Source of the DNA: Rhodospirillales bacterium
Lineage (GTDB): Bacteria; Pseudomonadota; Alphaproteobacteria; Bin95
DNA length: 64,000 bases
Direction: 5' to 3'
NCBI GenBank assembly: GCA_038143065.1
Contig: JAYQLI010000035.1
Span: 1,952,894-2,016,893, forward strand
Shown: one piece after another, positions 56,455 through 64,000 of the stretch
How positions within the stretch are numbered: position 1 is the stretch's first letter
How the letters are laid out: the number at the start of each line of letters is the position of its first letter
The notes under the pieces: generated by a model
Told to the model about the DNA's origin: nothing
Database searches by the model: none
The model's input: the letters and a program-made list of their open reading frames with translations, nothing else
Program-made: the position numbers and the translations under genes

Positions 56455-57347
56455 GCATTGTCGAAAATAAATCTGTTCGTCCAAAGCTAGGTCGCGGCTT
56501 AGCCGCGTTACTGGGAGAAGATGGTTCAGACCACGTAAGTGAGGGCAGTGCTAACAATAAAGCCACCCGGTCTCTACCTGTGGCATCACTCCAGCCTGGT
56601 GTTGGTCAGCCCCGACGACATTTTAATGAAGAAGCTCTAGACGCGCTTGCACAATCCATTCGTGAGCGTGGAATGCTACAACCCATTATTGCTCGAAGGC
56701 TGTCTGGCGAGCTGTCTGGTTATGAAATTATTGCCGGTGAACGACGCTGGCGCGCTGCTCAAAGGGCGGGTTTGGCAGAGGTTCCAGTAATTTTAAGGGA
56801 TATGACGGATCGTGATGCCTTAGAAATTGCTTTGATTGAAAATATTCAAAGGGAAGACCTGAACCCAATCGAAGAGGCAAATGGTTATCAGAACTTAGTG
56901 GATTCATTTGGCTATACCCAGGAAGATTTAGCTAAAGCGGTTGGTAAAAGCCGACCTCATGTAGCCAATATGATGAGACTTCTAAATCTTCCAGCAAAAC
57001 TTCGTACCTATGTGGCGGAAGGTCGTTTATCTGCGGGTCACGCGAGAGCATTGCTGGTGGCCAAAGACCCAGAAAAACTTGCTGAACTAGTGGTTCAACG
57101 TGGATTGAATGTGCGTCAGACCGAGCGATTGGTGCAAGAGGGCGGTATGCAAGTACCCCGCAAACCCTCTAGTAGAGACCCAAATGTCGTGTCTGCAGAG
57201 AAAGATCTGAGTGATGCGCTTGGTCTCAAAGCTGCTCTACAGCCTGTTGGAAAGCGCGGCGGCCGTCTTGTTTTGCATTATAAAGATTACGATCAATTAG
57301 AGTTTTTAATCTCCCGTTTGACCAAGCGGCCACACCAATACACTTGA
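56451..57347 (+). CDS. parB: Chromosome partitioning CTPase ParB
   Basis: LGRGLAALL, QPR, GERRWRAA, ENIQREDL, GHARALL. Confidence 0.97.
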   Translation: MSIVENKSVRPKLGRGLAALLGEDGSDHVSEGSANNKATRSLPVASLQPGVGQPRRHFNEEALDALAQSIRERGMLQPIIARRLSGELSGYEIIAGERRWRAAQRAGLAEVPVILRDMTDRDALEIALIENIQREDLNPIEEANGYQNLVDSFGYTQEDLAKAVGKSRPHVANMMRLLNLPAKLRTYVAEGRLSAGHARALLVAKDPEKLAELVVQRGLNVRQTERLVQEGGMQVPRKPSSRDPNVVSAEKDLSDALGLKAALQPVGKRGGRLVLHYKDYDQLEFLISRLTKRPHQYT

Positions 57348-57466
57348 TGCAATCAATACAACAATATAAATATTAAAAATTACAATACAATAAGAACAAA
57401 TATAAATTAAATATTTAATATAAAATACTACGTATTTAGTGATATAATTTGTTTTTTATTATACTT

Positions 57467-58461
57467 TTATATTGATATTGTTTTCCTGCTTTCTGCGGAT
57501 TGAATAATTGCCTCTAAGACATTTGTCGCATGCTCAATCTCTTCGGCACTAACGGGGAAACTATCTCCACCGGTAACGTCGTTACCAAAGCATTCGAGTG
57601 CGGCTTGAATGGTCGCCATCGCCGGGTAATCAAACCCGGGGTAACTAGACTGTGAGGTACCTTCTGCAATAGATGATATTTCTATTTTATCTTGGTCTCT
57701 AATCTCTACCCAACCACCAAGGCAATAGGCCGAAATGCGCCAGAGCGTGTTCGTCGCGGATAGGGTTGTCAAATGCCCGGTACAGCCATTCTCAAAATTC
57801 ATGCGAACTAGGTAGAGTCGTCAACATCAATTGGTGAAGCGACCCGTAGGCTTTGAACATTAACGTCTTTTATTCGCCCAAACATGTTGATGAACATGTC
57901 TAGCGCATGGATCCCCATCGAAGTCATACCGCCGGCTGGGCTCTCTTTTCGGCTATCGCGCCATAATCCACCCGCAGGTGCTAAATTAGAATCAAAGTGC
58001 CCATCAATATGGATGGGAGCCGCCAATTGCTTGCTATCTAGAATTTTCTTCATTTCTATTGAGTTTGGTGCAAACCGCCGATTGTGACCTATAGCAACCT
58101 TTAATCCCAGGGACTTGAAGGCATCTAAAGCTTGTTTTCCTTCTTTGCCGCTCAAGGTCCAAGGCTTTTCGCAGAAAACATGTTTTCCTGCCTCAGCTAC
58201 GGCCATTAATTGCTCAAAATGCTGGGTGTGGGGGGTTGCGATAACAACGACATCAATGGAGTCGTCGTTTAATGCATCTTCTAGACTGTCGGAAAGCGCT
58301 ATTTTACGATCTTCACAAAACGTATCTACTTTCGATGGTGTTCTTGTTACGGCCCTTTTAAATCGAAATGAGGCGCTGTCATCAACGGATGAGACCAAAA
58401 GTTGACCCCATCGACCTAAACCAACAATTGCTGCCCCGACCACATCACCCATTCTAAGCAC
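57467..58461 (-). CDS. Gfo/Idh/MocA family oxidoreductase (frameshift near 57811)
   Basis: GLGRWG, ATPHTQH, GKHVFCEKP, GHNRRF, GIHALD; one extra C joins the two ORFs. Confidence 0.88.
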
Positions 58462-58619
58462 CTTTCTTAAAAGAGCTTTCAGTATAACAAAGAAAATACC
58501 AAGAAGCCCACGACTGATTCATCTACACTAGAACTGAGTTTTACCTAACATTCATCGCTATTTGATGGGTTGTCTAAGCACTGGAAATCTAAAGCCCCCC
58601 AAAAATAGCTGAGACCTCT

Positions 58620-59330
58620 TCAGTGATTTAGATAAAGCTTAGTCATTACTTCTGGGTCTCTGAATGCCTCTGGAGGGCCGCTCGCAACAATCTGACCTCT
58701 ATTAATAACTACGGTGCGGTCCGCGACCTCTAAGGCGTGATGAGTATTTTGTTCAGATATTAAAACAGCGGTTCCTGCATCTCTGACTTTGCGAATAGCA
58801 TCAAATGTTCGGCCAACAGCCATTGGAGCAAGACCAAGTGATGGTTCATCAAGCATAATCAACTTTGGGGAACGCATCAGAGCTCGGCCTATAGCAAGCA
58901 TTTGCTGCTCTCCTCCTGAAAGTCGCCAGGCTTCAGACCGGCGCCGGGCCAATATCTCGGGAAATAAGGTCCAGATTTCTCCCATCCGAACTTTGGTGGC
59001 ATGCCAATTTCCATTGAAGACGGCCATCAGATTTTCTTCTACGCTTAGGCCGGGGAAAACCCGCCTTCCTTCTGGAACATAGCCAATGCCCAACAAGGCT
59101 ATCTCTGTTGGTTTCTGCGATGGAACAGGCTGACCTTCCCATGTTACTTGGCCAGAACTTATGGCCTCTAAACCCATTACCGCCCTTAATAGGCTGGACT
59201 TACCAGCGCCATTTGGCCCAAGTAATGCAAGTATTTCGCCGCTTCTAATCTTAAGGCTTATCGGGCCGCACCTTGGGGTTTCCGCGGGTCCGATAGTGGC
59301 CTGGTCAATATTGAGCAAGTCGCAGGTCAT
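58620..59330 (-). CDS. LivF-type ABC ATPase
   Basis: GPNGAGKS, YVPEGRRVF, LSGGEQQMLAIGRAL, DEPSLGLAP. Confidence 0.92.
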   Translation of the reverse strand: MTCDLLNIDQATIGPAETPRCGPISLKIRSGEILALLGPNGAGKSSLLRAVMGLEAISSGQVTWEGQPVPSQKPTEIALLGIGYVPEGRRVFPGLSVEENLMAVFNGNWHATKVRMGEIWTLFPEILARRRSEAWRLSGGEQQMLAIGRALMRSPKLIMLDEPSLGLAPMAVGRTFDAIRKVRDAGTAVLISEQNTHHALEVADRTVVINRGQIVASGPPEAFRDPEVMTKLYLNH

Positions 59331-60842
59331 TGCTCATGTCCTAAATCAATCGCTGTGCCTAGGTATGCAGAAACTACGACAGGGTTACGAACAACGTCTT
59401 TTGGTTTTCCATCAGCAATTATACGACCTTCTGAAAGGCACACGAGCCGATCAGCAAGATTAGCAACGAAAGGAACGTTGTGTTCCACTATAACCACAGC
59501 CGCAGTATTTGCTAATTTCCTGACTTCTTTGGCTAGTTTATTCCGTTCATCGGATGAGAGACCGGCAGCAGGTTCGTCTAGCAGAACGACCCCGTTGGCG
59601 TATTCACGCGCCCTGGTCATCTCAACAAAACGACGCTCGCTCTGCGAAAGGGATTTTACCAGGCGCCGGTCGTTGTTTTTGTAGCCCACCACCGCATAAT
59701 TACCGTCAACTGTTTCATCCTCAATTAATGCGGGTGTTTGAAAAGTTCGGCCAATTCGAACACCGAACACTAGTTCAATTTGACCAGAATCCGGTCGATC
59801 GATACCAGACAGCAGATTGAGAAGTGTTGACTTTCCCGCGCCGTTTGGACCGATAAGGCCTACAATTTCTCCCTTTTTAAGGTTCAGAGAAACGTTATTC
59901 ACAGCAGTTAAACCGCCAAAACTTCGGTAAAGTCCCAGCGATCGAAGCGGTATTTCATCGCTTATAGGAAATTTTTTGGCTTTCTTATCTGAGTATCTGA
60001 TAAGCGAAAATTTGGGGAAAAGGCCTGCTATGCCAGTAGGAAGAAATAAAATAGCTATAAGGAGAAGAAGGCCATAAAAAATCAAATAGGAATCTTCTAA
60101 AAATCGCAGGTATTCTGGCCCAAAAGTAACTGCAATCGAGGTTATTACAGCCGCTGTAGGACTATAACGCCCCCAATTAGAACCACTGCCAGAATAGCAG
60201 CCATTGTTTTAAATGACAGGATGTCTGGGGAAACAACTCCAACTGCGAGTGCGTGTATTGCCCCCCCAAACCACCGCACAGTCCACCCGCTAGCATGGCG
60301 AAAAGTCTTGTTTGTGGACCATTTATTCCAAAAGCTTTTGCTGCCAATGGCTGTGAACGCAATAGAGCTAGCTTTTCTTGCCCAGCGTATCGCTTAAATG
60401 ATGAATAAATGAATACGGCGATTAGTGTTGCGGATCCGGATAAGAACAATTTGCCTTGATCATCTAAGAGCCAATCTGGAGGGGTAGGACCGAGGAGCCC
60501 ATTAGCTCCACCAGTCAAGCTTTCCCAGTTAATAGCAACTAATACTACTCCTTCCGCCATAGCGAGTGTGGCAAGAGCAAAGTAGTGAGTTTCCAGCCTC
60601 GCAGCGGCGACCCCCATAGCCGCAATAATTAGACTGGCTATAAGAGCTGCCGCGGGAACTGCAACGGCGTAGGGCAAATCAAGTTTAAGCGCCAGAAGGA
60701 CAACAGCATATGCCCCTAGTCCCATCGCTGTTCCCGCGGCAAGCGATAGAGCTCCTGCAAGGCCAAATACAATTTGCCAACCTATGGCACCAGCTGCCAA
60801 AGCTAATGCTAATGTAAGCAAATGCAGGTCATATGGACTCAT
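59327..60842 (-). CDS. Fused LivM-type permease / LivG-type ATPase (frameshifts near 60264 and 60172)
   Basis: YFALATLA, LTGGANGL, PEYLRF, FLPTGI, then [28 protein letters not shown]; permease C-terminus and NBD share one uninterrupted ORF (59327-60085). Confidence 0.85.
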
Positions 60843-61712
60843 ACGCGGCGTCCTCTGACGTCTCCAGCTAAACCTTCTGGTCGGAAAACGAGCAGTGTTA
60901 GGAAAGCTAAATACAGAACACCTTCGGCTACAGCGTGAGAGAACAGTGCTGCGCCAACAGTTTCAAATAGCGCAATAGCAACTGCAATTAATGCAGTTGG
61001 AAAGATTCGACCCCATCCTGCGGCCGTTGCAGCGATGTAGGCCTTAAGAATGTAAATAGCTCCAACAGCAGGAGTGACATAATGTTGGGTGGATAAGATG
61101 GCTCCGGCCAATCCCGATAGAATTCCAGCAAAAACGAAGGCAAATATTGCTAGCTTTATAACAGGAAGCCCATGGGCAGCAGCTATTTCCGGATCCTCTG
61201 CGGCAGCGCGAAGCCGCATTCCAAATCGGCTTTTAAGTAGCAAAAGAGCGGTAAATGTGAAGGCAAATATTGCCATTCCTAAAGAGATTATGCCGTGGGC
61301 AGATAAATAAAGCCCATCAAGGCGCCATCCACCACTCAAAATAGCTGGCAAAGCTCGAGGCGCACCGCCAAAACCAACAGTTAAACTATTTTGTGCCACT
61401 ATTCCTAAGGCGATGGCGGCTATGAAAGTAGATTCTACTGGGCGCTGACGGAGAGGTGCCCATGCAATAGCGGCCACCTACAAGGCCTAAAGCTCCACCT
61501 ACAAGTGCTGCCACTCCAACAGCAAGGACTCCGGTCGCCCCAAATAATACTGCAGTTACCCCACCATAGGCTGCCACTGCGGCAACATCCCCATGAGCAA
61601 AATTAACTGCACCGGCAGCCCTAAGCGTTAGTGCAAAACCGAGCCCCAAGACGCCATATCCAGCTCCCAGAACAAGTCCATTAAAAAGAAGCTGAAAAGA
61701 AATTGCGTCCAA
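60839..61712 (-). CDS. LivH-type ABC permease (frameshift near 61479)
   Basis: NGLVLG..YG..GLGF, VNFAHG, G..LRAAAED, FRPEGL. Confidence 0.88.
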
Positions 61713-61733
61713 GCTAAAGCCTTATTTTTTGAG

Positions 61734-61752
61734 AGCCCTACATTTCAGGGCT
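61734..61752 (-). other. Stem-loop between the binding-protein gene and the first permease gene
   Basis: AGCCCT-N7-AGGGCT; typical position for an mRNA-stabilising hairpin. Confidence 0.4.
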
Positions 61753-61762
61753 AAACATTGGC

Positions 61763-62899
61763 TCAATCCACCCAAGCCCCGTCTTTGTATCGACGAACTA
61801 CCGTTGCATCGCGTGATGCGCCATCATAGCAAACGATGAGCGCCGAATGAGCCATATCTCCTTTTCCATCGCTGGAATAGTTCATGGCCGCACCGTTGTA
61901 AGAGTTTTTACTAAGCCAACTACGCATGCTCTCTGGCGATTGGGCGCCAGCGTCCATGGCCTCTGCGAACATACCTACGGCATCATATTCTGCGAGTGCG
62001 AACGCGTCGGGTTCAGAATCAAAGCGGGCGCGGTACGCGTCAGCAAAAACTATAGCGGCTCCTTTTGTTTCTGCGGCAGGGGCCGAACCTGATTCAGCAC
62101 AAACCCCCTTTAGCATTGAGGGCTCTAGCAAATCAGCAGTCGTAGGTTGATGCATTGCGGAACCGGCTACAATCGGTAGATCGAGGCCCAGTTCTTTTGC
62201 TTGTCGGATTGCAAGTGCTGTTGGGCCCGCATGTAAATGCAAGAGAAAGCCATCTGCACCGGCAGCTGCGGCCTTCATTAAAGCTGCTGAAAGGTCTTTG
62301 GCTGCAGGAGACAAGCCCTCTTCATAAACTGGAGCAACGCCTAGGTTTTTTAAATTTTCTTTAAGTACAGTGCGTCCGCTTTGGCCGTATGCGGTTGTCT
62401 GGAACAAAATTGCAGGGCGTTTCATACCCATTTGATCAATGGCATAAAGGGCGTGAGCGGCTTTTACCACGCTGTCTCCAGGGAAAAAGCGAAAAACGTT
62501 TGTGCTTCCCATTTCGGTAAGCTTCGCAGTTCCCGATATAGTTAGGATTGGCAAGTTTTCTCTATCTGCAAGCGGTAATAATGCCAGCATTTGGGAACCC
62601 AGTATTGGTCCTAATATCGCGGCAGGCTTGTTACCTTTAAGTGCTCTTCGAAATGCACTTACTGCCACATCTGGCGCAGTGGTTGTATCCTGAACATCTG
62701 CAACAAACGTTAAACCGTGCCGTTTGCTAGCATGCTCAGCTGCTAAAATGGCTCCGTTGCGCTGCGCTCCGCCTTCCAGCGCTAAAAAGCCTGTGATTGG
62801 AGCCAGTACAGGCACATAAACTTCTTTGGAAACTGCGGATCCGGTGAAGCCCGATAAACTGACAAAAAACGTCAAAATAGCAAAATAGGCGCGTTTCAC
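61763..62899 (-). CDS. LivK/PBP1-type periplasmic substrate-binding protein
   Basis: Signal peptide; APITG..A..G, ILGP, NVFRF, YG, YDAV patterns of HAAT-family binding proteins. Confidence 0.9.
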   Translation of the reverse strand: MKRAYFAILTFFVSLSGFTGSAVSKEVYVPVLAPITGFLALEGGAQRNGAILAAEHASKRHGLTFVADVQDTTTAPDVAVSAFRRALKGNKPAAILGPILGSQMLALLPLADRENLPILTISGTAKLTEMGSTNVFRFFPGDSVVKAAHALYAIDQMGMKRPAILFQTTAYGQSGRTVLKENLKNLGVAPVYEEGLSPAAKDLSAALMKAAAAGADGFLLHLHAGPTALAIRQAKELGLDLPIVAGSAMHQPTTADLLEPSMLKGVCAESGSAPAAETKGAAIVFADAYRARFDSEPDAFALAEYDAVGMFAEAMDAGAQSPESMRSWLSKNSYNGAAMNYSSDGKGDMAHSALIVCYDGASRDATVVRRYKDGAWVD

Positions 62900-62900
62900 G

Positions 62901-62990
62901 GCCGTTCTCCCTTCGCTGGCATGACCCAGAGCAGGTTCGACGGGTCCTTCTCAGCCGCAAGAGTTAGGTCTCGCGGCGCCCCAGTCGGCT
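62901..62990 (-). ncRNA. TPP riboswitch (THI element)
   Basis: Minus strand reads GCCGACUGGGGC-GCCGCGAGA-loop-UCUUGCGGC-UGAGAAGG-ACCC-GUCGAACCUGCUCUGG-GUCAUG-CCAGCGAAGGGAGAACGGC; it aligns by eye with the E. coli thiM aptamer (P2, P3, UGAGA, P4, P5, GCG). Confidence 0.92.
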
Positions 62991-62999
62991 CTCTTATAA

Positions 63000-63026
63000 A
63001 ATGTAGCGTAATTAATGATTGGTCAA
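63000..63026 (-). promoter_or_regulatory. Housekeeping-sigma promoter for the riboswitch leader
   Basis: TTGACCA-N12-GCTACATT resembles the Caulobacter sigma73 consensus; the implied TSS lies just before the aptamer. Confidence 0.55.
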
Positions 63027-63039
63027 TGCCATTAAAATA

Positions 63040-63067
63040 CTTGAACGGCTCTAACCGATCACCATAT
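63040..63067 (+). promoter_or_regulatory. RpoH (sigma32) promoter
   Basis: CTTGAAC-N13-CACCATAT upstream of a small heat-shock gene. Confidence 0.7.
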
Positions 63068-63072
63068 CCCTA

Positions 63073-63175
63073 CTGCTAGCAGGGTTTGCCCAAATGGGGA
63101 GCCTTTGCGGCATCAACTGGCCCAACTGGGCATTTGGCTAATTTTAAACATCGCTTTTAAGGAGGATGTGTTATG
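63073..63175 (+). ncRNA. ROSE-type RNA thermometer in the 5' UTR
   Basis: Two upstream hairpins, then ACAUC-G-CUU pairing with GGAGGAUGU (SD), with the ROSE UCGCU motif and bulged G. Confidence 0.75.
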
Positions 63176-63631
63176 CGTTCTATTGATTTTGCCCCACTTT
63201 ATCGTAGTGCCGTTGGATTTGACCGGCTTTTCAACATGTTTGAAAGCATGGACCGAGCAGACGATAGTGGTTACCCACCTTACAATATTGAGAAAACTCG
63301 TGATGACGGCTACCAGATAACTCTGGCCGTAGCTGGATTTGCGGAATCTGATTTATCGATTGAAGTAAAAGAAGATCAGCTCACCATTTCTGGGGGCATT
63401 GGACAGAGCCAAGACGAAAAGCGGGTTTTTCTACACAGAGGTATTGCATCCCGAGCTTTCCGGCGCGCGTGGAGATTGGCCGATCATGTTGAAGTGATTG
63501 GTGCCCGGCTCGAAAGAGGTCTCCTACACGTTGACCTGGAGCGGCGTGTACCAGAGGCTAAGAAGGCCCGCCAGATTAATATTTCTACTTCAAGCCTTTC
63601 AAAAACGATTGAAGCGGAAACCGTTAATTAA
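63173..63631 (+). CDS. ibpA: Small heat-shock protein (Hsp20/IbpA)
   Basis: DFAPLYRSAVGFDRL, YPPYNIE, AVAGF, FLHRGIA.RAF, PEAKKARQINI. Confidence 0.95.
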   Translation: MRSIDFAPLYRSAVGFDRLFNMFESMDRADDSGYPPYNIEKTRDDGYQITLAVAGFAESDLSIEVKEDQLTISGGIGQSQDEKRVFLHRGIASRAFRRAWRLADHVEVIGARLERGLLHVDLERRVPEAKKARQINISTSSLSKTIEAETVN

Positions 63632-63660
63632 CCTTTGGAACAGAATGCCAGAGTGAATGT

Positions 63661-63692
63661 GGGACCGTGCCATATATGCGCGGTCCCTTTTT
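63661..63692 (+). terminator. Rho-independent terminator after ibpA
   Basis: GGGACCGTGC-CATATAT-GCGCGGTCCC followed by TTTTT. Confidence 0.8.
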
Positions 63693-63699
63693 ATATTGC

Positions 63700-64000
63700 T
63701 CAAAGCGCCTCCGTCAGGGTGACTATGCCGTCACGCACTTCAAAGGCGCATTTTTCCAGAGAATCACCCAAGCATGGTCCATCGATACACAGGCCGGTAT
63801 CTGGCTCGAAGCTAGCACCATGGCTTGTGCAAAAAGATTTTGTTTTCCGCGATCAAAAAAACGATCTGGAACCCAATCTAGTGGAGTGCCTGCATGGGGG
63901 CATCGATTACGGTATACAATTGTCTCGTTTTGCCAACGCAGGACGATAAATTTCCGTACCCTGGCACCAATTTTGATTGTCACACCTCTGGCATCGTTTT
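63700..64000 (-). CDS. Rieske (2Fe-2S) ferredoxin-like protein (frameshift near 63833; start may lie beyond the window)
   Basis: NRCPHAGTPL, plus CTSHGASF..DTGLCIDGPC in the shifted frame. Confidence 0.85.

Follow-up and report, generated by a model that had tools for sequence, protein, structure and literature searches.

A TPP-riboswitch-controlled LivK-type ABC transporter operon of Alphaproteobacteria as a candidate vitamin B1 or B1-precursor importer

Here, we propose that a four-gene ATP-binding cassette (ABC) importer of HAAT architecture, encoded behind a thiamin pyrophosphate (TPP) riboswitch, has been recruited to vitamin B1 (thiamin) salvage. The operon lies in a 64,000-nucleotide stretch of the genome of a Rhodospirillales bacterium (contig JAYQLI010000035.1, positions 1,952,894 to 2,016,893; hereafter the window, with positions counted from its first letter) and encodes, in this order on the minus strand, a LivK-type binding protein, a LivH-type permease, a fused LivM-LivG protein and a LivF-type ATPase. 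Its carriers are marine and soil Alphaproteobacteria, mostly unable to make the thiazole half of the vitamin. That the system imports some thiamin-related compound is, in our judgement, very probable; that this compound is the thiazole moiety of thiamin strikes us as evenly balanced. We put forward somewhat more tentatively the fuller proposal that this is the missing bacterial importer of hydroxyethylthiazole (HET) or carboxythiazole (cHET), mostly paired with a ThiM-free route in which either the cargo arrives phosphorylated or an undiscovered kinase acts on it. A preliminary description of the window, made from its letters without database searches, had suggested an importer of vitamin B1 or of a B1 precursor, and that suggestion is supported by the Rfam match, by the recurrence of the riboswitch in 77 of 80 related loci, by the thiazole gap in the gene inventories and by the lack of an earlier description in the literature searched.

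The TPP aptamer and its conserved pairing with the transporter

In the window, the TPP family RF00059 was the sole match over its gathering score (Rfam 15, cmscan). It scored 60.5 bits against a cut-off of 54.3 (E 2.1e-9) and covered model positions 1-105 of 105 without truncation, and the same site was recovered by a genome-wide scan of the window's genome. The complete aptamer that the preliminary description had claimed is thus confirmed by a significant, full-length match within the interval 62890-63000. Helix P1 is formed by GCCG (62989-62986) and CGGC (62904-62901), and the GTG start codon of the binding-protein gene (62899-62897) stands one base past its end, so that the earlier statement of an aptamer ending 1 nt before the GTG is true of P1 (62901 against 62899). 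The GTG start is supported by a 77%-identical relative (L004), which has ATG in the same alignment column. The sole Shine-Dalgarno-like sequence, GGAG at 62910-62907, falls within the conserved AGGGAG of the aptamer.

This arrangement suggests how the operon might be controlled. Bacterial TPP riboswitches are off-switches, according to an excerpt of PMC3597705. Because the ribosome-binding site and the start codon lie in or adjoin P1 and the junction, closure of the aptamer should be enough to stop the initiation of translation, with no need for a separate expression platform. At high TPP levels the ligand would occupy the leader aptamer and the closure of P1 would bury the Shine-Dalgarno sequence in AGGGAG, so that the binding protein, and probably the products of the whole operon, would no longer be translated; a shortage of TPP would allow expression.

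In an alignment of 39 homologous leaders, 94.7% of cells pair, compared with 41-53% after sliding the partners, a share that is inflated because the structure was derived from the same alignment. Both-sided changes occur in 11 of the 23 pairs, five of them in P1 and five in P3, and the conserved helices are backed by these compensatory changes, which are concentrated in P1 and P3. The minimum-free-energy fold of the leader is not the aptamer and is no better than that of shuffled sequences (z -1.08). Promoter and terminator scans of 58300-63250 returned 3 and 6 sites, respectively, against 5.7 and 5.9 expected. Contigs from one RNA-library run (X15) span parts of the operon; such contigs cannot show transcription, as DNA may be present in the library.

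How widely is the riboswitch paired with this transporter? Relatives of the binding protein number at least 1706 at E <= 0.001 among 8000 candidates scored, many of them at 55-60% identity. Nearly all of the relatives listed are unnamed or annotated as branched-chain amino-acid binding proteins, the label which the preliminary description had expected and which the source annotation indeed carries. A one-genome-per-species scan with a 23-member alignment gave 376 relatives, of which the best 80 loci (51-94% protein identity) were kept; they come from Thalassobaculum, Nisaea, Azospirillum, BAL199, SAR116 single-cell genomes and many alphaproteobacterial metagenome-assembled genomes (MAGs). A crude motif search gave 56 loci with a TPP-like core just upstream in the orientation of the gene, and a covariance model built from the 39 leaders placed a TPP aptamer directly upstream, on the strand of the gene, in 77 of the 80. 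The three loci without a match (L013, L056 and L061) have only 28, 1 and 63 nt upstream, respectively. The same model also matches the window and the other TPP riboswitch of its genome.

Since the covariance model was built from these same loci, the Rfam RF00059 model was also run on 51 whole carrier genomes, namely the window's own plus the genomes behind 50 of the 80 loci. With riboswitch positions assigned to the binding-protein locus via contig ranges, RF00059 was present there in 51 of 51 genomes; 43 of these matches exceed the gathering score and the other eight score 46.6-53.4 bits. The riboswitch-transporter association therefore holds in all examined loci with enough upstream sequence. 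One MAG (G011) has two such units (L019 and L029) on separate contigs, each with its own aptamer.

The surroundings of the operon are far less constant. The 80 loci gave 962 open reading frames (ORFs) for clustering, and for 20 of the flanking clusters representatives were compared with Pfam. Cluster counts are lower bounds, since the longest-ORF rule chose antisense shadow ORFs where loci were GC-rich (clusters 6 and 17). The sole conserved unit is the binding protein, LivH, LivM-LivG and LivF, with flanks that vary by lineage (aminotransferases, epimerase, GST, phosphoribosyltransferase-like, SBP_bac_5, enoyl-CoA hydratase, PhyH and other families). Neither a thi gene nor a kinase was found among the scanned representatives, which makes the riboswitch the only local link to thiamin. 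Of the two kinds of association that the preliminary description had proposed to look for beside homologues, recurring TPP riboswitches were therefore found and adjoining thi genes were not.

Thiamin genes of the carriers and the nature of the cargo

The gene content of the 51 carrier genomes was inventoried by six-frame Pfam searches, to which control genomes responded as expected. ThiE and ThiD were each found in 50 of the 51, ThiC in only five (three Nisaea and two Azospirillum) and ThiM in six (Thalassobaculum, BAL199 and relatives), while Thi4 and TPK were found in none. Strong ThiG matches (>100 bits) were confined to three genomes, two of them Azospirillum (333-338 bits) and the third with a 121-bit fragment at a contig end; a further 21 genomes had only partial matches of 19-33 bits, which are taken to be other barrel proteins. 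Among five representative genomes, ThiL was present in all and TenA in four, the window's genome being the one without it. The same gene pattern is seen in several complete chromosomes (e.g. G012, G013, G025, G026, G031 and G040).

Most carriers have more than one TPP riboswitch: one in five genomes, two in 33, three in 11, four in one and five in one. For the riboswitches away from the binding protein, excluding those beside thiC, thiG or thiM, we fetched the downstream sequence of 48 loci, one of them only 400 nt long. In 39 of the 47 readable loci an ORF of a ThiY-type (NMT1) cluster was found, usually with ATPase and permease clusters, and in three more the permease cluster alone; Pfam scans of two representative loci gave ABC_tran, BPD_transp_1 and NMT1 (PF09084). 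By sequence, the second TPP-controlled operon is thus usually thiZXY, and extra riboswitches precede thiC, thiG-region genes or thiM. The pyrimidine need of these genomes therefore already has a transporter.

On its gene content, a typical carrier would take up the pyrimidine through ThiZXY and activate it by ThiD, after which ThiE would carry out the coupling and ThiL the last step to the cofactor. For making or activating the thiazole it has no known means, and apart from ThiZXY the LivK-type transporter is the one unit under TPP control. Retention of ThiD and ThiE without ThiG, Thi4 or ThiM is a pathway gap, in that ThiE lacks a source of thiazole phosphate. The gap is sharpest in three Nisaea genomes, which have riboswitch-controlled ThiC along with ThiD and ThiE, and no ThiG, Thi4 or ThiM. 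Because they keep ThiC without any of these, Nisaea must get its thiazole externally or by an unknown enzyme. The inventory points to a thiazole gap and not a pyrimidine gap, which fits the first guess of the preliminary description, a thiazole-type cargo such as cHET.

A comparison within the window's own order leads in the same direction. The order comprises 34 genomes at least 90% complete, all of one family and in three genera, and was searched at E <= 1e-80 for orthologues of the binding protein and at E <= 1e-20 for ThiG. In the window's genus (eight genomes, including its own) the binding protein is present in 8/8 and ThiG in 1/8, as a fragment; the second genus has the binding protein in 0/17 and ThiG in 17/17, and the third has them in 1/9 and 9/9, respectively. 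ThiG is accordingly absent from seven of the nine carriers in the order and present in all 25 non-carriers. ThiC is absent in all 34 genomes, and ThiM was absent in five genomes of the sister genera. As the pyrimidine need is equal in all three genera, the transporter follows the thiazole need. The three Nisaea genomes described above provide a further case that is independent of this order.

In light of this pattern, what might the transporter do? The LivK-fold protein would capture a thiamin-related compound in the periplasm, HET, cHET or a phosphorylated form being candidates, and deliver it to the LivH + LivM-LivG/LivF translocator, whose LivH/LivM channel would be powered by the ATPase domains of LivG and LivF. 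ThiE would then join the thiazole to hydroxymethylpyrimidine (HMP) pyrophosphate, made by ThiD from ThiZXY-imported pyrimidine, and ThiL would make TPP.

The binding protein itself offers some clues to the ligand. Its AlphaFold2 model, made with a 23-sequence alignment, has a mean pLDDT of 90.2 and a pTM of 0.87. The best PDB match is 3td9, both by Foldseek (TM 0.80, 23% identity) and by sequence search (120.9 bits). Foldseek otherwise gave LivK-type structures at TM ~0.8 and 15-24% identity, with amino-acid, aromatic-acid, urea or amide ligands, and the ESM Atlas returned only generic "ABC transporter substrate-binding protein" clusters. We compared pocket residues with those of Escherichia coli LivJ by sequence alignment at 22% identity, not by structural superposition, with the numbers checked against the E. 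coli sequence. Two LivJ features are conserved, namely the loop Ala100-Ala101-Thr102, which we take to hold the ligand carboxylate (here S122-G123-T124), and Tyr150 (here Y171). The LivJ residues which presumably bind the alpha-ammonium group and lie over the side chain (Glu226, Tyr18 and Tyr202) are replaced: across the 23-member family alignment an invariant E42 stands in place of Tyr18 and an invariant H223 in place of Tyr202, and the region of Glu226 is an invariant G246-S247-A248-M-H250-Q251-P252/T253 (GSAMHQP), with no acidic residue at or near the position. These substitutions argue against a canonical alpha-amino-acid ligand and are compatible with an acid-bearing ligand that is not an alpha-amino acid, for instance a small ring carboxylate such as cHET, without singling one out.

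The chief rival to thiazole import, which we hold to be unlikely, is that the system takes up intact vitamin B1 (thiamin, thiamin monophosphate (TMP) or TPP) in place of ThiBPQ where both biosynthetic branches have been lost. Most carriers lack ThiC, ThiG, Thi4 and ThiM altogether, and the ThiB-type model TIGR01254 was over its cut-off in none of the five representative genomes (best 83 bits against 93.4, elsewhere in the genome). With ThiL present in all five of those genomes, imported TMP would be usable, and if TMP or TPP were the cargo there would be no missing kinase to assume; the loss of ThiG together with the presence of the transporter in the window's genus would fit a switch to vitamin uptake equally well. 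Yet the 50 of 51 carriers that keep ThiD, and likewise ThiE, and the TPP-controlled ThiZXY found in most, would be maintaining a pathway that is useless without a thiazole source, and the three Nisaea genomes would be keeping a riboswitch-controlled ThiC with no thiazole gene at all. Free thiamin, moreover, would also have no route to TPP, because TPK is absent from all 51 genomes and we know of no thiamin kinase in this class.

Two other cargoes fare worse. Import of a pyrimidine precursor or breakdown product (HMP, AmMP or FAMP), parallel to or instead of ThiZXY, has little probability in our view. It would suit the 46 of 51 carriers without ThiC, and the five carriers (those of four SAR116-like loci, and G034) that show this TPP riboswitch alone, all five being incomplete assemblies. 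It sits poorly, however, with an order that lacks ThiC throughout and has the transporter only in the ThiG-less genus and one other genome, with the ThiY-type ORFs downstream of most second riboswitches, and with the retention of the transporter by ThiC-positive Nisaea and Azospirillum. Still less credible, and to our minds very improbable, is an ordinary importer of branched-chain amino acids or another nitrogen compound with an incidental riboswitch, which is what the source annotation of the relatives would imply and which could appeal to the amino-acid ligands of the closest solved structures. Against this stand the aptamer in 77 of 77 loci with enough upstream sequence, across 51-94% protein identity, a score of only 62.3 bits against a cut-off of 477 with the NCBIfam LivJ/K subfamily model (PRK15404), and the replacement of LivJ Glu226, Tyr18 and Tyr202 by other, family-invariant residues.

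Several points also weigh against import of a thiazole. The most serious is that 45 of the 51 carriers, the window's genome included, are without ThiM, which is, to our knowledge, the only kinase able to use imported HET or cHET. No kinase was found in or beside either TPP-controlled operon; ten more ORFs downstream of thiY gave no Pfam match or unrelated ones (CoxG, Mnh/Mbh subunits, Usp). With ThiM absent and no kinase found, no known reaction would give imported HET or cHET the phosphate required by ThiE, and either import of a phosphorylated thiazole or an undiscovered kinase has to be assumed, neither with a precedent known to us. Genomes without ThiC, ThiG and ThiM are normally scored as users of intact B1. 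ThiG and the transporter occur together in G069, from a sister genus, and in two Azospirillum genomes. As the genomes of the order are related, the phyletic contrast amounts to only one or two evolutionary events and not to 34 observations, and absences are weaker where the genomes are MAGs or single-cell assemblies. Because no thi genes adjoin the operon, the riboswitch and the phyletic pattern are its only links to thiamin; we infer the ligand from the presence and absence of genes, and the structure searches, which give generic LivK-type proteins only, indicate no single ligand. On the side of a thiazole cargo, the six carriers with a TPP-controlled thiM (Thalassobaculum, BAL199 and similar) showed no transporter-like ORF beside it in the two thiM loci for which ORFs were listed (L083 and L086), these ORFs not having been scanned by Pfam.

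Some features of the second TPP-controlled operon may be recorded here. The only other TPP riboswitch of the window's genome (C35:2185724-2185865, 65 bits; locus L134, G000:C35:2178524-2186065) heads genes for a LuxE-like acyl-protein synthetase, a LuxC-like acyl-CoA reductase, thiZ, thiX, an NMT1/ThiY-type binding protein and a short-chain dehydrogenase, and has relatives in L087, L090, L091 and L120. An acid-to-aldehyde reductase pair and a dehydrogenase next to a pyrimidine importer suggest salvage of a thiamin precursor in oxidised form, as a carboxylic acid or aldehyde, and the short-chain dehydrogenase may be OarX, which sometimes clusters with acyl-CoA synthetase genes according to an excerpt of PMC11223231. 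In two genomes of the window's genus, G004 (C59, 27815-38647) and G005 (C1, 223093-233906), the two TPP operons converge across a distance of about 10 kb and make up a small island of thiamin salvage, whereas about 170 kb separates them in the window's genome.

Operon architecture and the integrity of the window's copy

The transporter has the HAAT architecture throughout, with a Peripla_BP_6 binding protein, two BPD_transp_2 permeases and two ATPases, one of them with a BCA_ABC_TP_C tail (Table 1). The binding protein, on which the specificity of the transporter depends, begins with a signal-peptide-like segment and matches only PF13458 and PF01094 in Pfam, PF09084 (NMT1) not being matched. 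For the proteins of the operon, all NCBIfam Liv and Urt models score far under their curated cut-offs, and the LivF and UrtE equivalogs are likewise under theirs on the 58620-59330 protein. The full intact gene set is seen in L003, a MAG locus 94.5% identical to the window over 7 kb, with products of 378, 290, 505 and 236 aa; in 60 relatives the LivM-LivG fusion has a median length of 572 aa.

Table 1. Features of the riboswitch-transporter operon in the window
Feature	Position	Strand	Match or remark
TPP (THI-box) riboswitch aptamer	62890..62993	minus	RF00059
Binding protein, LivK/LivJ fold, 378 aa	61763..62899	minus	PF13458 Peripla_BP_6, E 7.6e-41
LivH-type permease	60839..61712	minus	PF02653 on both pieces, profile positions 2-74 + 78-266
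Fused LivM-type permease + LivG-type ATPase	59327..60842	minus	PF02653, PF00005, PF12399
LivF-type ATPase, 236 aa, intact	58620..59330	minus	PF00005, E 4.2e-30
Gfo/Idh/MocA oxidoreductase	57467..58461	minus	158 nt downstream of LivF

The LivG domain has an ABC signature other than LSGGQ in each of the 60 fused homologues listed (homologues of 59327-60085, loci L003-L082); it reads LSQSERR in the window and, in many relatives, LPHGLRRR. LivF retains LSGGEQQ, and together these signatures suggest one degenerate and one consensus ATP site in the transporter. Downstream, the Gfo/Idh/MocA oxidoreductase gene is outside the conserved core and its membership of the operon is putative; a same-strand unclustered ORF also follows LivF in L003, L004 and L006-L009, of which only that of L003 was scanned by Pfam. 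Upstream and divergent from the leader lies an Hsp20/IbpA-type small heat-shock gene (63173-63631, plus strand), its start about 180 nt from the aptamer, and a gene of this type is also found upstream in close relatives (cluster 22: L003, L004, L006, L007 and L009).

The order and coordinates given in the preliminary description for the LivK, LivH, fused LivM-LivG and LivF genes stand, but it overlooked frameshifts in LivH and LivM-LivG. In this assembly LivH is split into ORFs at 61386-61712 and 60839-61477, and LivM-LivG into 60177-60842, a middle frame that is not among the listed ORFs, and 59327-60085. Compared with L003, LivH has one extra G at 61478, while LivM-LivG lacks a base in a G run at 60265 and has G5 instead of G6 at 60175. 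The oxidoreductase gene lacks a C at 57813, which leaves ORFs of 217 and 111 aa where L003 has one of 331 aa. Contigs from public runs (X1, X6, X9 and X15, from four studies) have the open-frame length at every site they cover, in 4/4 covering runs at 61477-61479, in 3/3 at 60260-60261 and in 3/3 at 60169-60172; one covering contig, of 1213 nt, has only five other differences from the window. Because L003 and the contigs of the four runs are free of all three, the frameshifts of the operon are probably assembly errors, and the window's copy is probably functional.

It is improbable, in our estimation, that the window instead holds a decaying pseudogene operon, with frameshifts that are real and represent a recent inactivation private to the strain. 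Such decay would account for three single-base frameshifts inside 1.3 kb and another in the next gene, and splits also affect the LuxE- and LuxC-like genes in the second TPP operon of the genome. However, three of the four indels (60265, 60175 and 57813) are length changes in short G/C runs, typical of read errors; the covering contigs of four runs from four studies all have open frames; and synonymous changes dominate in the broken genes, with synonymous/non-synonymous codon changes relative to L003 of 24/3 in LivH and 39/26 in LivM-LivG, compared with 36/22 in the intact binding protein. That the splits are scattered over unrelated genes also speaks for assembly error and not for targeted decay. 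Programmed frameshifting and another genetic code were considered and dropped, as the relatives and the public contigs are just one base longer or shorter. Across 57000-64000 there are 12 gap positions relative to L003 (e.g. 63836), of which several are single-base homopolymer changes and four break genes. Errors of this kind may be numerous in the assembly, so apparent pseudogenes elsewhere in the genome should be read with care.

Significance and comparison with known systems

Marine microbes exchange vitamin B1 and its fragments at picomolar concentrations, and gene-based calls of B1 need depend on a short list of known transporters and enzymes. If our proposal is true, Alphaproteobacteria of the SAR116, Thalassobaculum and Nisaea types, whose gene content currently marks them as dependent on intact B1, would instead be salvagers of precursors, importing both halves of the vitamin and joining them. 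The annotation correction touches at least 376 genome loci and would change calls of B1 auxotrophy in metagenomic surveys. It also exposes a second gap, in that many genomes keep ThiD and ThiE without a known source of thiazole phosphate. The cultured strains among the carriers, namely Nisaea denitrificans DSM 18348, Thalassobaculum fulvum KCTC 42651, Azospirillum spp. and BAL199, provide a concrete candidate system.

We found no description of a HAAT- or LivK-type thiamin transporter in the literature, supplementary tables of TPP-regulon transporters and RegPrecise being outside this coverage, which agrees with the expectation of the preliminary description that the system had not already been characterised. 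None is mentioned in the excerpts of PMC9870897, PMC12452182, PMC11223231, PMC12442306, PMC12998435, PMC10881298 and PMC3766115, and an earlier, database-only annotation of the system may exist (Additional file 5 of PMC3766115 lists 19 transporter orthologues). According to excerpts of two surveys of B1 genes (PMC12998435, PMC10881298), the transporters used in such work are thiBPQ, thiXYZ, thiT, thiV, cytX, ThiPerm and omr1, and one of the two assigns uptake of cHET to thiM, a kinase. The B1-transporter literature examined, in the portions covered, names no binding-protein-dependent thiazole importer. The system thus appears to join a known regulatory logic to a known transporter superfamily in a combination that is undescribed and widely mis-annotated.

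Each half of this combination has counterparts. E. coli LivJ/LivK-LivHMGF (HAAT, TC 3.A.1.4) has the same architecture and folds, including the BCA_ABC_TP_C tail on LivG, and the model of the binding protein aligns by Foldseek at TM 0.56-0.68 to the open E. coli LivJ/LivK forms and at 0.80 to closed homologues. It differs in that the present binding protein is only 22-23% identical to LivJ and LivK, LivM and LivG are fused here, the amino-acid-binding residues are replaced, and control is by a TPP riboswitch, whereas E. coli liv is subject to leucine/Lrp regulation. A further comparison is offered by the aromatic-acid-binding HAAT proteins of Rhodopseudomonas palustris (4evq, 4evs, 4ey3, 4eyg and 4f06), which share the LivK fold (TM 0.79-0.80) and bind small ring carboxylates, lignin-derived benzoates by their PDB titles. 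They are only 15-20% identical to the present protein and no thiamin link or riboswitch was found reported for them; they show that a LivK fold has room for a ligand comparable in size and charge to carboxythiazole.

Thiazole import itself has been proposed, from comparative genomics and thiamin-related riboswitch control, for ThiW (the S-component of an ECF transporter) and ThiU; these are unrelated membrane proteins without a periplasmic binding protein, mainly of Firmicutes, and neither is HAAT. ThiW is named in connection with PMC6478431 and PMC6593275, both in excerpt. Among binding-protein-dependent systems of the proteobacterial thiamin regulon, ThiBPQ is similarly controlled by a TPP riboswitch, but ThiB belongs to another class of binding protein and the system has one permease and one ATPase, against two permease and two ATPase domains here. 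ThiBPQ is the enterobacterial ABC importer of thiamin, TMP and TPP.

Another functional parallel is ThiXYZ/ThiZXY, an importer of HMP and formylaminopyrimidine with an NMT1/ThiY binding protein. Like the system proposed here, it couples ABC import under a TPP riboswitch to ThiD/ThiE salvage of a thiamin precursor, and most of the carrier genomes encode ThiZXY as their second TPP-controlled operon. The two are built differently, ThiZXY being of the NitT/TauT family (PF09084 with BPD_transp_1) and the present transporter having PF13458 with two BPD_transp_2 permeases. Their distributions differ as well: ThiXYZ tracks the lack of ThiC, whereas the LivK-type system tracks the lack of ThiG.

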